NCBI GenBank assembly: GCA_964634225.1 | Contig: CAZWIB010000001.1 | Location: 1-32,603, forward strand | DNA length: 32,603 nucleotides | Reading direction: 5' to 3' | Source of the DNA: Candidatus Woesearchaeota archaeon | Lineage (GTDB): Archaea; Nanobdellota; Nanobdellia; Pacearchaeales; GW2011-AR1 | In this document: positions 17,477 through 29,697 of the stretch, piece after piece | How positions within the stretch are numbered: the first letter of the stretch is position 1 | Layout: the number at the start of each line of letters is the position of its first letter | Notes under the pieces: model-generated | The model's input: the letters and a program-made list of their open reading frames with translations, nothing else | What the model was told of the DNA's origin: nothing | The model's database searches: none | Made by a program: the position numbers and the translations under genes

Positions 17477-17779
17477 ATGGCTTATCAAAGTATTAAATTT
17501 GATCCTTTAACTGAAGAAGAGATTAAAGAAAGAGCTAAGGAATCTAAAGAAGAAATGCAAGAAGTTTTAGAATGGGAAAAGGAAGAGCAAAAGAAATTAA
17601 AGAATTCTAAAACTCCTCAAGCACAAGGAGCTGCCAAGAGGGCTTTGAAAAAGGTTGCAAGGAGAATTAATACTGTTAAGGGAAATATTTTATATTGGGA
17701 TTTAAGAGTTAAAGGTCAAAGTCATTTTCGTGCTAATCTTGAGAGGCATGAGTTATGGGATCAGTTGAAGAATGAATGA
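17477..17779 (+). CDS. Hypothetical K/E-rich protein (100 aa)
   Basis: ATG 17477 lies 30 nt downstream of TTTTAAAA (17447-17454); the ORF-finder TTG at 17462 is unlikely. The stop codon overlaps the 3' end of the convergent tRNA by 3 nt. Confidence 0.45.
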   Translation: MAYQSIKFDPLTEEEIKERAKESKEEMQEVLEWEKEEQKKLKNSKTPQAQGAAKRALKKVARRINTVKGNILYWDLRVKGQSHFRANLERHELWDQLKNE

Positions 17780-17850
17780 CCCCGACGGGATTTGAACCCG
17801 CGACACCGTGATTAAGAGTCACGTGCTCTACCAGACTGAGCTACGGAGTC
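17777..17850 (-). tRNA. tRNA-Lys (anticodon CUU), 74 nt, no encoded CCA
   Basis: The reverse complement folds by hand into a cloverleaf: acceptor GACUCCG/CGGGGUC, D arm GCUC-AGUCUGGUA-GAGC, anticodon arm CGUGA-CUCUUAA-UCACG, variable loop GUGUC, T arm GCGGG-UUCAAAU-CCCGU, discriminator A. Confidence 0.93.
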
Positions 17851-17941
17851 TCGAAAATTTTATTTTTCTCGCTCTGATACAAATCGACATAGTCATTTGC
17901 ATAGAGTCATATAAGTTATTAGAAATATTTGTTTAAAAGAT

Positions 17942-24764: not shown

Positions 24765-27305
24765 TTAAAATTCCCCTAAAGTCATTTGTTTTTTTCCTTC
24801 AATAATTTCCTTTATATCAAGATTAAAAACTTGAAAAATGTTTTCAACTGCAGGTAAAATCTGCCTTTCCAAATAATATTGAATATCATATTCTCCTTTT
24901 TCTGTTGGAAGTTTTACTTTATCTCTAACTAATTTTTTCTTATCTTTTGTTTCTGCAATATAATATTCAATTAAATTCCCTTGAGTTACTGGAGTTTCTT
25001 GTTCAATCATCTTTTTAGCAGCTATAACATGTGGAGAAATAGCCTTGTATTCTGAAATTGGTTTTTTTAATTGAGTTCTAATTATTAATTCTTTTATATC
25101 AATTTTTCTTTGCCTTATTTTTTTAGCTACATCTTTAACATATTCCAATGCTTTTTTTTCATTTCCATCTTTAAGAATCTGCCTTATTACATAATCTTGC
25201 ATTTTTCTTGACAAAGCACACCAATCTCTTCTTACTGTTTCAAATCCTCTTATTTTTAAACCATTCTTTTTATTAAGAAGAGCATATTTCTTTTTTGCAC
25301 CTACTTTTCCAGCTCTTGTTGTAACCCACAAACCTCTTTTATAAAAATCTTCTAGTTCTAAATGCATGATTCCCGGAAGTTCTGAATTTAATTTACTTAA
25401 CAATTTTTTAATATCACTTTCTTTTTTCTTATTCATTAAAAAACCAACTGAATCAGTATCACCAAATATAACTTCATATTTTAATTTCTTTATTTTTTCA
25501 ATTATTTCTTTGTTGTATTTTCTTACGAACGCTAAAATTGATGCAGAAGTTTCTAAGGAATAGTATCTTGCTCCAAAAAAACCAATATACCCATGAACAG
25601 AAGCAGATAACACCTTGAAGGCATTACTTCTTGCTTTAGTTATAACATTTGGATTTTTTTTGTATTCTGCTTTGTATTTTTTTCTTTTTTCAAAAATATC
25701 CCTTAATAGTTCAGGAAAAAATCCTGGTTTTTTAGAGAAATAAAATTTCTTTTTCTTTCCTTTTAATTCTAATTCTGGGGATGCAAATGCATTTTTTTCT
25801 TTTTTTTCTAATAAAGTATCTTTTGAAAGATTATGAGTTATAATAATACTTGTATGCATTGAAGCAAAATCAAAAATTGCTATTTTTTCGTAAAGTCCGG
25901 GAGTTGGTTGATAAACAAAAGCACCTTCTACTCCTCCGCTTGATCTTCTTTCACTTATTTCATTATAACCGGGTCTTCTTTCTGGAATTTCATTGAATTT
26001 TTCTAAATTATGTAAGATATAAGATTCAACATATTTTGAGAGTCCAGCTCTTGATACATCAAAGGATGGTTCTTTTATTACTTTTGAAAACTCTAATAAA
26101 TCTGGCCAGAATTTTTCAAATAAATTTAAAGTTAAAACAGAATCATGCAAGTTATATTCATAGTATTTTTCCCATTCGGTTATTTGTGAAGAGTGTTTGT
26201 GTTCGAAACTTTTTTTAGAATCTCCTAAAAATTCTTTTGCGACTTCATTAAGTGTTAAGGTTTCTGATTCCATGTATTGAGCATAAGCTGTTCTTATAAA
26301 TTTTAAGAGATCTATGTGCACTATTCCATCTATTTTACCTTTCATTTCTCTTCCTCTTGAAAATTTTGGTTGGGATCCGTCTAGTCCTAATGAAAGTTTT
26401 ACTTTGTGTTTATCTGCTCTTGCTTTTAGATAAGGTAAATCAAATCCATCTGAAAAATATCCAACTAAGAAATCAGGAGATACTTTTTTTACATATTCTG
26501 TAAATTTTTCTAAGAGTTCTGCTTCATCTTTAACATATTCTACATAAGCGAAAGAGCCCCTTGTTTCTTTCGCGCTATCTCCTCGAAGCGCGGAAGGGCG
26601 ACTTTTTTCTTTGCCTCTGCCTAAAGTCGCACGGTTTTTTTCTGATCTCTTCCAAGTTATAACTTTTTTAAAATTATCAGAAACAAGAGAAACCATAAGT
26701 ATTTCACCTTCACCTATTTTTAATTCATCACATTCTATATCATAAGCGAGAGCTTTTGGTTTGAAAGATTTTTTTATTTCTTTGGAAGATTCTAGTTTTA
26801 TACAAAAATCAACATCTAAAGCCATATCAATTCCTCCGAATTCTTGAGAATTGTGAAGCACTTCACCTTGTATTTCATACCAAGTTAAAGGATTAATCTT
26901 TTTCTCCATTATGTAATGAGTTATGTATCCTAAATCATATCCTCTTCTCTTTTCTATTTCTGGCAATCCAAGTTTGTCTGCAATATCATGTAAATCTTTG
27001 TAATTTGTTGCAAAAACTTTTAGGGCTTGAACTTTTTTTCCTAAGAATTTTTTGTCTTTTAATTCAACTTTTTCAACTTTTGTTTTTCTTCCTTTTACGT
27101 CTAACTTTATTTTTTCTATTTTTTTGATTAGTGCTTTGGTTTTTTTATCACCTAATTTTGGTTTTAATATTGCCCATAAGTAAACATCACAAGAATCAAT
27201 TATGCAAACTCGTTTTCCTTTGTCATCTCTGCCTATTATTTTTGCATAGTTTTTACCTTCAAAATCAAAGTAATTGTAATCTATTGGAATGAATGAAGTT
27301 TTCAT
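24765..27305 (-). CDS. polB: Family-B DNA polymerase (PolB) with a C-terminal PIP-like box
   Basis: Exo I LAYDIECD, Exo II GYFSDGFDLPYL, Exo III YNLHDSVLT. Motif A FDFASMHTSIIITHNLSKDT, motif B KVLSASVHGYIGF, motif C VIFGDTDSV. C-terminus QMTLGEF. Confidence 0.92.
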   Translation of the reverse strand: MKTSFIPIDYNYFDFEGKNYAKIIGRDDKGKRVCIIDSCDVYLWAILKPKLGDKKTKALIKKIEKIKLDVKGRKTKVEKVELKDKKFLGKKVQALKVFATNYKDLHDIADKLGLPEIEKRRGYDLGYITHYIMEKKINPLTWYEIQGEVLHNSQEFGGIDMALDVDFCIKLESSKEIKKSFKPKALAYDIECDELKIGEGEILMVSLVSDNFKKVITWKRSEKNRATLGRGKEKSRPSALRGDSAKETRGSFAYVEYVKDEAELLEKFTEYVKKVSPDFLVGYFSDGFDLPYLKARADKHKVKLSLGLDGSQPKFSRGREMKGKIDGIVHIDLLKFIRTAYAQYMESETLTLNEVAKEFLGDSKKSFEHKHSSQITEWEKYYEYNLHDSVLTLNLFEKFWPDLLEFSKVIKEPSFDVSRAGLSKYVESYILHNLEKFNEIPERRPGYNEISERRSSGGVEGAFVYQPTPGLYEKIAIFDFASMHTSIIITHNLSKDTLLEKKEKNAFASPELELKGKKKKFYFSKKPGFFPELLRDIFEKRKKYKAEYKKNPNVITKARSNAFKVLSASVHGYIGFFGARYYSLETSASILAFVRKYNKEIIEKIKKLKYEVIFGDTDSVGFLMNKKKESDIKKLLSKLNSELPGIMHLELEDFYKRGLWVTTRAGKVGAKKKYALLNKKNGLKIRGFETVRRDWCALSRKMQDYVIRQILKDGNEKKALEYVKDVAKKIRQRKIDIKELIIRTQLKKPISEYKAISPHVIAAKKMIEQETPVTQGNLIEYYIAETKDKKKLVRDKVKLPTEKGEYDIQYYLERQILPAVENIFQVFNLDIKEIIEGKKQMTLGEF
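26548..26645 (-). other. GC-rich in-frame insertion with three stem-loops inside polB (aa ~221-252)
   Basis: Hand count gives about 55% G+C over 26548-26634, versus about 30% background. Arms: GCGAAAGA/TCTTTCGC, CGCGCT/AGCGCG and GCGACTTT/AAAGTCGC. Codons CGT, CGC, CGA and GCG are otherwise rare in the window. Confidence 0.7.
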
Positions 27306-28878: not shown

Positions 28879-29697
28879 TTATCTATGGGGGGGCAATAAT
28901 CTATCTGGTCTTGTGATTCTTCTTCTTGCAACCTTTGTTCTCTTTCTTCTATTTGCATCTCTTATTCTTCTCATTGCTCTTCTTTCTCTTGCTAATCTTT
29001 TTCTCCTTATTTTTGATATGTTTTTAGCTCTTCTTCTAATTTCTCTTTCTCTTATTACTGGAGGTCTATATCTTCTAGGTTCTCTTTCTCTTATTACTGG
29101 AGGTCTATATCTTCTAGGTTCTCTTTCTCTTATTACTGGAGATCTATATCTTCTAGGTTCTCTACTTCTTTGCCACGGAATACTTCCTATTCTAGGTTTT
29201 CTGAATTGAAGTAAAAGTCCGATTACTAAAAATATAATTCCAATATAAAGGAAAATATTTTTTTCATAAACTAGATTTGTGAAACTTGTTATAATTGATA
29301 ATATTCCCAAGACCATTAATACTACTCCAAAACCCCATCTTACTATAAAATAGACAATTCCTGCTAAAAACAAAATGGTTAGTATTGTTGGTAAATAATC
29401 TCCTAAAAAGAAACTTCCTGTATCAAAACTACCCATGTTTACATCAAAATTTGAAGTTGCTATACCATATACTGCAAATAACGAAAGTACTAAACTGATT
29501 ACTACTTTTGTTCCTTGATTTTCTCTGAATACTGTTCGTCCTAATATGAAATTCAATAATGCAAAAAATACTACAAATATTCCTCCATAAACAAATAAAG
29601 AAGAATCAAAATATCCTCCGAATCCACCAAGAAATTGTGCGCTTACAAGACCAATTAAGAATATACCCATAATTAATGCTAATATGCCTCTTTTCAT
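28879..29697 (-). CDS. Multi-pass membrane protein with an Arg-rich C-terminal tail containing 13-aa tandem repeats
   Basis: Signal/TM plus about 5 further TM helices. The tail reads ...REPRRYRSPVIRE REPRRYRPPVIRE REPRRYRPPVIRE REIRRRAKN...RRKRTKVARRRITR. A TATA box at 29719-29726 lies 29 nt from the ATG. Confidence 0.65.
   Translation of the reverse strand: MKRGILALIMGIFLIGLVSAQFLGGFGGYFDSSLFVYGGIFVVFFALLNFILGRTVFRENQGTKVVISLVLSLFAVYGIATSNFDVNMGSFDTGSFFLGDYLPTILTILFLAGIVYFIVRWGFGVVLMVLGILSIITSFTNLVYEKNIFLYIGIIFLVIGLLLQFRKPRIGSIPWQRSREPRRYRSPVIREREPRRYRPPVIREREPRRYRPPVIREREIRRRAKNISKIRRKRLARERRAMRRIRDANRRKRTKVARRRITRPDRLLPPHR
29042..29158. repeat. 39-bp tandem repeat x3 (units 29042-29080, 29081-29119, 29120-29158), flanked by degenerate partial copies
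   Basis: Units 1 and 2 are identical. Unit 3 differs at one base (G to A), which changes Pro to Ser. In frame within CDS 28879-29697. Confidence 0.92.

Follow-up and report, generated by a model that had tools for sequence, protein, structure and literature searches.

A structured interspersed repeat of nanoarchaeal genomes within the exonuclease domain of a family B DNA polymerase gene

The window analysed here, a stretch of 32,603 nucleotides from contig CAZWIB010000001.1 (GenBank assembly GCA_964634225.1, Candidatus Woesearchaeota archaeon; genome G000, 429 kb in 22 contigs, 75% complete), carries on its minus strand a gene for a family B DNA polymerase (PolB). Within the exonuclease domain of this gene, between the sequences VITWK and YVEYV, lies a short GC-rich insertion that is one copy of a multi-copy, structured repeat element. 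The product of the gene matches the structures of the KOD, 9N, Tgo and Pfu polymerases (E ~1e-100) and is 65–77% identical to its orthologues in related genomes. The gene, the segment that sets it apart from orthologues with an empty site, and the repeat core are placed as follows.

24765 to 27305, minus strand: family B DNA polymerase (PolB) gene, an open reading frame (ORF) of 846 residues that hosts the insert
26550 to 26630, minus strand: extra segment of PolB relative to empty orthologues in protein alignments, 81 nt, 27 codons, A226 to F252, ATLGRGKEKSRPSALRGDSAKETRGSF
26547 to 26632, minus strand: core of the repeat element, 86 nt, matching covariance model R1 (94.5 bits, E 2.6e-21, model positions 1–88)

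The first-pass annotation, made from the sequence letters, had described 26548–26645 as a GC-rich, in-frame patch with three stem-loops. The patch is indeed in frame and free of stop codons, and the stems are present base for base: in window letters, GCGAAAGA and TCTTTCGC at 26548–26555 and 26566–26573, CGCGCT and AGCGCG at 26571–26576 and 26587–26592, and GCGACTTT and AAAGTCGC at 26598–26605 and 26623–26630. Its G+C content measures 51.0% against 28.9% for the genome, so that the patch is GC-rich relative to its background, although less so than the hand count of ~55% had it. A scan with a 98-nt sliding window yields two places in the window with at least 48% G+C, tRNA-Lys (17728–17879) and the PolB patch (26533–26657), in agreement with the claim that no other non-tRNA patch of this kind is present. 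The proposed length of about 32 intervening residues holds in comparison with KOD-type PolB, where query residues 184–220 align with chain residues 136–175 and query 253 onward with chain 179 onward, leaving 3 residues in KOD and 32 here. Alignment with empty orthologues, however, identifies SEKNR as native linker and confines the extra piece to 27 codons, the spacing from W to YVEY being 8 residues in those orthologues and 35 in the G000 protein. In an AlphaFold model (40-sequence alignment; mean pLDDT, the predicted local distance difference test score, 79), residues 225–251 form a coil without secondary structure at a pLDDT of ~30, flanked by the well-modelled strands 212–217 and 255–257. 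We take the insert to be a surface loop that is translated and has no order, one that would probably be harmless to the polymerase. The PolB gene also receives insertions of another sort: orthologues of ~1215–1243 residues (P0049, P0077, P0099, P0116 and P0119, and those of G017 and G031) contain intein or LAGLIDADG domains (PF14528, PF14890), so that, from one lineage to another, this gene holds inserts of two unrelated kinds.

The first-pass annotation had likened the patch to a foreign palindromic element inserted in an essential gene, and further copies bear this out. A second copy in G000 (C18:9369–9457) lies in frame, and in the orientation of the gene, in the 5′ part of a 177-residue ORF that resembles a LigD 3′-phosphoesterase (HHASHLHWDLRLE). 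The G000 copies share 86% identity across the first hairpin, which the two genes read in different frames (RATLGRGKEKSR and ARLSAEAKKKSR); this places their likeness at the level of DNA and not of protein; both are thus found inside genes for DNA replication or repair. A LigD-phosphoesterase-like gene in another genome (G068, locus L035) also carries a copy. Searched at the DNA level, 301 genomes of the order yielded near full-length copies (74–96% identity) in other genera and at unrelated loci. A covariance model (R1), built from 14 copies, finds the element in 44 of the 151 sampled genera of the family, leaving 107 without a copy, with the highest counts (at least 27–29 matches each) in the genomes G335, G339 and G378. 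When 185,579 species genomes were scanned with a degenerate pattern, ~86 of the 98 stretches recovered came from metagenome-assembled genomes (MAGs) of Woesearchaeota, Pacearchaeota, Nanoarchaeota or Nanoarchaeia, and the remaining ~12, scattered among bacteria, equal the number estimated for chance; the family is essentially confined to Woese-, Pace- and Nanoarchaeota MAGs. Our census of positions comprises 136 distinct copies of ~80–88 nt from ~45 genomes. No Rfam 15 family overlaps the element (at E <= 10 across 26300–26900 of the window, and at E <= 1 in four other copy-bearing loci), hits to tRNA and rRNA at such loci bearing on the surroundings of the copies only, and we found no description of this repeat family in the literature.

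Copies tend to resemble their neighbours in the same genome. Within a genome, copies at different sites are 0.8–0.97 identical, against 0.53–0.78 for copies at the same site in different genera, and for 59 of 120 copies the nearest relative is in the same genome where 13 would be expected. Tandem arrays are found in G335 (Nanoarchaeota UBA9966, DUKY01), where as many as five elements of 83 nt are interleaved with a conserved 38-nt hairpin, GCACGACAACATCAATTTCAAAAAACATAATTGTCGTGC, at a period of ~121 nt (L119:218–783, L114:2209–2657, and in L116 and L120). These arrays resemble a mosaic of bacterial interspersed mosaic elements (BIMEs) and, loosely, a repeat-spacer array, but with spacers that are near-identical.

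Read on the PolB sense strand, the element is built from the following parts.

26598 to 26630, minus strand: helix 1, GCGACUUU paired with AAAGUCGC, 8 bp, enclosing a 17-nt loop with a Shine-Dalgarno (SD)-like GAGG (family consensus CGGAGGCAA)
26594 to 26597, minus strand: 5′ strand of the pseudoknot, CCUU, directly after helix 1, with its partner AAGG in the loop of helix 3
26571 to 26592, minus strand: helix 2, CGCGCU paired with AGCGCG, loop UCGAGGAGAU, a weakly supported helix of the long subtype only
26548 to 26573, minus strand: helix 3, GCGAAAGA paired with UCUUUCGC, loop AACAAGGGGC
26559 to 26562, minus strand: 3′ strand of the pseudoknot, the SD-like AAGG in the loop of helix 3
Loop sequence of the repeat family: UCGGAGGCAAU

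Covariation across 121 aligned copies supports this fold. Standard pairs occupy 90.7% of cells, against 44–57% in controls whose 3′ partners were slid by 1–3 columns, and 22 of the 24 pairs have changed on both sides. Helix 1 is paired in 98.9% of cells and all eight of its pairs have changed on both sides (one is UA in 63 copies and AU in 56); helix 3 (7 bp) is paired in 90.2%, with six of its seven pairs so changed; helix 2 is paired in 70.5%, about half of the copies being without its 3′ strand. The percentages of these three helices are somewhat inflated, as the alignment had been fitted to the model there. The pseudoknot pairs, CCUU with AAGG, lie outside the covariance model and therefore give independent support: 92% of their cells are paired, and for one pair 58 copies have CG and 32 have GC. 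The abundant G.U pairs among the 121 copies, which would read as A.C mismatches on the opposite strand, identify the PolB sense strand as the constrained one. A small RNA gene antisense to PolB, for which a plus-strand hairpin followed by a T run (z = -2.1) made a candidate, is ruled out by these same pairs, and the T run is not a general feature. Folded as a single sequence, the PolB region has an unremarkable energy on the sense strand (z = -0.35), and the case for structure thus rests on the covariation. Complementarity to the CCUCC at the 3′ end of 16S rRNA (...GGAUCACCUCCU, read in locus L038) is found in the loops of the hairpins, which contain GGAGG, GAGGAG and AAGGGG; an SD-like GGGG(U) stands 8–10 nt before the 3′ end of the element; and the consensus sense strand has a stop codon in none of its three frames.

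The commonest site of the element is immediately before a start codon. In 45 of the 136 copies the ATG that opens a long host ORF adjoins the element, 26 of them at −1 and 15 at 0 relative to its 3′ end, with four elsewhere. The genes downstream (among them rpS3Ae, L24e, L44e, L37Ae-like, PheRS beta, SRP54, TBP, DNA ligase, RFC, RNase HII, Mre11, HerA and SMC) recur across genera. A further 14 copies lie within ORFs; all are in sense orientation and stop-free, with spans of 84, 87, 90 or 93 nt that use all three frames of the element, and no in-frame antisense copy within an ORF occurs among the 136. The hosts of such copies include PolB (G000 and G335), an NPPY methyltransferase, an RsmB-like methyltransferase and an ERCC4-like nuclease, each occupied at the same site in two genera, while five other copies with long open frames on both sides are leader or array copies between two genes. 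tRNA genes are touched by eight of 121 copies: two sense copies adjoin 5′ ends without a gap, two antisense copies are at 3′ ends, and four antisense copies fill the bulk of long introns of 89–104 nt (L060:1421–1596, L052:1434–1608, L102:662–823 and L130:2866–3035). One antisense copy lies in a 16S–tRNA-Ala spacer. The exact adjacency to ATG codons and tRNA 5′ ends suggests either that gene starts are targeted or that selection for leader-competent positions is strong. Taken with the fold, these positions describe a small structured interspersed repeat with an unusual combination of pseudoknot, SD-like loops, start-codon placement and stop-free sense strand.

Many leader copies are also preceded by a start codon of their own. 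In 25 of 40 an upstream ATG has an open frame running into the core, where shuffled controls give 10.7, and the reading often begins MK.K(I/L)N. We observe that a short AT-rich arm starting at such an ATG (ATGAAAAATAAAATAAAT; peptides MK.K(I/L)N) stands 14–47 nt before many cores (for example in L037, L094, L145, L109 and L151), that its (A/T)TAAAT motif is always a multiple of 3 from the ATG (a dozen copies, by eye), and that many copies have a TATA-like box ~26 nt further upstream of the arm ATG, ~43 nt before the core (also by eye). From the position of this box, transcription would start near the upstream ATG, and the arm and its ATG suggest a leaderless upstream ORF (uORF) reading into the element. 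A conserved leader peptide was considered as well and is ruled out, as all three frames are used by the uORFs that run into the core.

The history of the PolB site can be followed across lineages. A six-frame search of 40 related genomes found PolB in 38, nearly all of the matches being split into query residues 1–224 and 253–846, and the segment is missing from all 30 PolB orthologues aligned from related genomes. The orthologues nearest to the G000 protein in the genome sample (74–76% identity) have an empty site; the PolB of G335 (71% identity) carries a copy of that genome's own subtype. Among metagenomic PolBs found by protein search, the same site holds an intact insert (for example P0001, ATLGRGNKKSRPSELRGESARETRGSLA), a shortened or decayed one (for example P0013, which the covariance model matches no longer) or an empty linker of 8 residues. 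The DNA of nine insert-bearing PolBs, which include long and short subtypes, retains the full fold with compensatory changes: GCGAC with GUCGC, GCGGC with GCCGC and GUGAC with GUCAC, and CCCUU with AAGGG against CCGUU with AGCGG in the pseudoknot. In a tree of PolB with the insert masked, occupied and empty genes are interleaved and the G000 gene is sister to an empty one (FastTree, branch supports not inspected, from a sample enriched for insert-bearers). A pattern made from the two flanks of the insert matched no empty-site allele of the G000 gene in metagenomes. This history and the likeness of copies within genomes leave one of three routes: copies entered the same sites repeatedly, were lost precisely, or underwent gene conversion with one another. 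Each of the three is a process at the DNA level of the kind typical for interspersed repeats.

We hypothesize, with some confidence, that the PolB insert is a copy of a small non-coding interspersed repeat of Pacearchaeota- and Woesearchaeota-type Nanoarchaeota that spreads at the DNA level and is here read through by the ribosome. The repeat would spread, or be homogenized by gene conversion, as DNA, and would be transcribed as part of host RNAs, its sense strand folding into hairpin 1, the pseudoknot, an optional hairpin 2 and hairpin 3. A copy within a gene could then be read through on its stop-free strand as ~27–30 extra residues, whereas a copy placed exactly before an ATG could act as an mRNA leader by virtue of the SD-like GGGG(U) near its 3′ end. 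In PolB the extra residues would form a disordered loop within the hairpin that joins the VITWK strand to the YVEYV strand, and leave the enzyme otherwise intact. The likeness to Rickettsia palindromic elements (RPEs) that the first-pass annotation proposed is supported by the absence of the segment from orthologues, its recurrence elsewhere and the 14 copies within ORFs, and at the same time needs refining: the element is more than a palindrome, having a covarying, pseudoknotted fold; it lies mostly before start codons; and its site in PolB is occupied in many lineages.

Several observations weigh against such a mobile origin. No consistent transposase partner emerged: among the families searched, neither Y1 nor TnpB nor reverse transcriptase is present in G335, the genome with the most copies. 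Among five high-copy genomes, PF01797 (Y1) occurs in two, PF00078 in three and PF07282 in none above the cut-off, other transposase families not having been searched. Clear terminal inverted repeats are absent, the ends showing just a loose 5′-TG...CA-3′, which in some subtypes extends to 5′-(N)TGCGA...TCGCA-3′ and is not kept in subtypes with GUGGUAUC stems. Nor is there a regular target-site duplication: flanking direct repeats scoring at least 11 accompany 18 of 136 copies (3 in controls), mostly in arrays or at the locus of a GINS-like gene, and flanking repeats of 20–40 nt are occasional. The same gene sites (rpS3Ae, PheRS beta, HerA, TBP, ligase, GINS and PolB) are occupied across genera, with exact abutment to the ATG, and the copies in PolB keep their fold, the nucleotides of the element being conserved at least as well as the 300 nt of codons that flank it (between G000 and P0001, 89% identity in the element and 76–79% in the flanks; as means of 45 pairs, 77% and 72–75%). 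A function for the host explains these shared sites and this conserved fold no less well than selfishness alone would. Finally, G000 itself holds just two copies, in an assembly that is three-quarters complete.

Two of these points have local counterparts. In G005 a Y1 (IS200/IS605-type) transposase gene (C110:8119–8472) lies ~1.4 kb from an element copy (C110:9911–9995), with no link shown between them. At the front of the GINS-like gene (MITYNDIYEAARKERY...), five genera have an antisense element (L050, L093, L081 with two copies, L152 and L118), flanked by a 31–40-nt direct duplication of the first codons of the gene and a short closing inverted repeat; the partial copy upstream differs from the true gene start mostly at third codon positions. 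A long target-site duplication as a general hallmark of the family was considered and rejected, as it is seen at the GINS locus, L040 and L085 only.

The explanation that best survives beside a mobile repeat, one that we nonetheless regard as unlikely, is that the element is mainly a cis-regulatory RNA leader of the host. The pseudoknot (CCCUU with AAGGG) would hide the SD-like GGGG(U) 8–10 nt before the start codon, access to it being modulated by the leaderless uORF, a protein or a small molecule, such that genes of replication, repair and translation are coordinated and the PolB copy is retained for an action that it still has in the mRNA. The abutment of a third of the copies to a host ATG, the information-processing genes served and their recurrence across genera all speak for this idea, as do the covarying pseudoknot, the complementarity of the loops to the 16S 3′ end, the excess of upstream ATGs open into the core, and the PolB copies, with a fold that is kept and conservation at least equal to that of the flanking codons. 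It accounts poorly for arrays of up to five copies away from gene starts, for antisense copies in tRNA introns, tRNA trailers and the 16S–tRNA spacer, and for in-ORF copies that use three frames. The element is also absent from 107 of 151 genera and decayed to remnants in some PolBs, its copies are more alike within a genome than at the same gene between genera, and the genes served share no single pathway beyond what tiny genomes contain. Thus, of the features of a leader, a covarying fold beside the start codon is found, and a single coherent gene set and exclusively leader contexts are not. The regulatory and the mobile-repeat explanations are not mutually exclusive. A bolder version of either, which we hold to be similarly doubtful, would make the element a self-spreading translation-start cassette targeted to gene starts (where leaderless mRNAs have their start codon and tRNAs their 5′ end), or a genome-wide cis-acting RNA signal on which the cell depends. 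If so, pseudoknot, SD-like loops and uORF would control the loading of ribosomes on dozens of replication and translation genes, and selection on the RNA fold would persist even inside the coding sequence of PolB.

Far less probable is an intron, of the bulge-helix-bulge type or another, removed from the PolB mRNA to give a protein without the loop, as the first-pass annotation had entertained together with an embedded structured RNA. The splicing endonucleases of DPANN archaea are permissive, and family copies do lie inside four tRNA introns, both of which would favour splicing. Those copies, however, are antisense and make up part of the intron only, and the splice motif is formed by the anticodon arm of the tRNA and the ends of the intron rather than by the element, whose own ends form local hairpins and do not pair together. 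Moreover, all 14 in-ORF copies and all PolB copies seen keep the frame and are stop-free. Frame-keeping, absence of stops, sense-only orientation and the use of three frames are a product of selection on translation, and splicing would impose none of them; the PolB insert is thus probably translated, and neither an intron nor an embedded RNA finds support. Scarcely any weight remains for a protein loop specific to the lineage that originated where it lies, or for an assembly or chimera artefact: the linker of the exonuclease-domain hairpin does vary in length among PolBs, but the same nucleotide sequence and fold recur at >130 other places in ~45 genomes, the copies are alike as DNA even where they are read in different frames, and independent assemblies (JGI, Logan and NCBI) hold an equivalent insert at the same PolB site, which argues against an artefact.

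Beyond the polymerase gene, the window contains a 272-residue ORF (28879–29697, minus strand) with several hydrophobic segments and an arginine/proline-rich tail in which REPRRYR(S/P)PVIRE is repeated three times in tandem; a 98-residue antisense ORF overlaps it.

Even the smallest archaeal genomes (0.4–1.2 Mb) carry a successful structured repeat family, one that enters essential genes, including that of the replicative polymerase, probably without breaking them. The family is a rare archaeal counterpart of the RPEs, both residing in the reduced genomes of host-dependent cells. Its placement at start codons and tRNA 5′ ends, its stop-free strand, its SD-like loops and its pseudoknot make it a tractable case for the question of how a selfish repeat turns into, or passes for, a translation signal. 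There is a practical side as well, since such inserts lengthen proteins and give rise to indels that falsely seem specific to a lineage; in DPANN MAGs, phylogenetic markers based on indels and gene callers can both be led astray.

Several known systems invite comparison with the element. The transposed tRNA introns of Thermoproteales, reportedly described by Fujishima and colleagues in 2010, likewise consist of related short sequences in several tRNA introns and elsewhere in archaeal genomes, but the intron copies seen here are antisense passengers in longer introns, and the in-gene copies behave as translated. Leaders of the SAM-II and preQ1-II riboswitch type, which sequester the SD, resemble the element in having an H-type pseudoknot with a 3′ strand formed by the purine-rich stretch for ribosome binding just before a start codon; riboswitches, however, serve one pathway in few copies, without arrays, copies within ORFs or antisense copies in tRNA introns. 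Among structured bacterial repeats, the repetitive extragenic palindromes (REPs) and their mosaics (BIMEs), the enterobacterial repetitive intergenic consensus (ERIC) sequences and the Correia elements (Neisseria miniature insertion sequences, NEMIS) are similarly interspersed and transcribed, show compensatory changes, occur singly or in mosaic arrays and can alter the expression of neighbours, and the G335 arrays of an 83-nt element alternating with a 38-nt hairpin are particularly BIME-like. REPs differ in being extragenic hairpins of 20–40 nt with REP-associated tyrosine (RAYT) transposases, whereas the element here is ~85 nt, enters ORFs and is accompanied by Y1 in two of five high-copy genomes; Correia elements are marked by clear inverted ends together with duplication of TA, features for which we found no equivalent.

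[quoted passage not shown] Known MITEs of archaea, however, have terminal inverted repeats that match an insertion sequence resident in the genome, and they produce target duplications, neither of which is evident here, and the review of these elements names no DPANN example (PMC10969869). Functionally, the nearest parallel is the RPEs, which insert in frame into many genes of reduced genomes (Ogata et al., 2000, as summarized in PMC10969869). As a functional analogy, drawn from their description and not from sequence or a claim of membership, RPEs and the present family are both small, hairpin-forming, multi-copy repeats in the reduced genomes of host-dependent cells, found repeatedly in frame in unrelated genes, where they would be read as added peptide and appear compatible with the fold of the proteins that receive them (PMC10969869). 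RPEs are the longer (~100–150 nt against ~85 nt) and lie inside genes, whereas the archaeal family has a covarying pseudoknot and SD-like loops and is found most often exactly before start codons.

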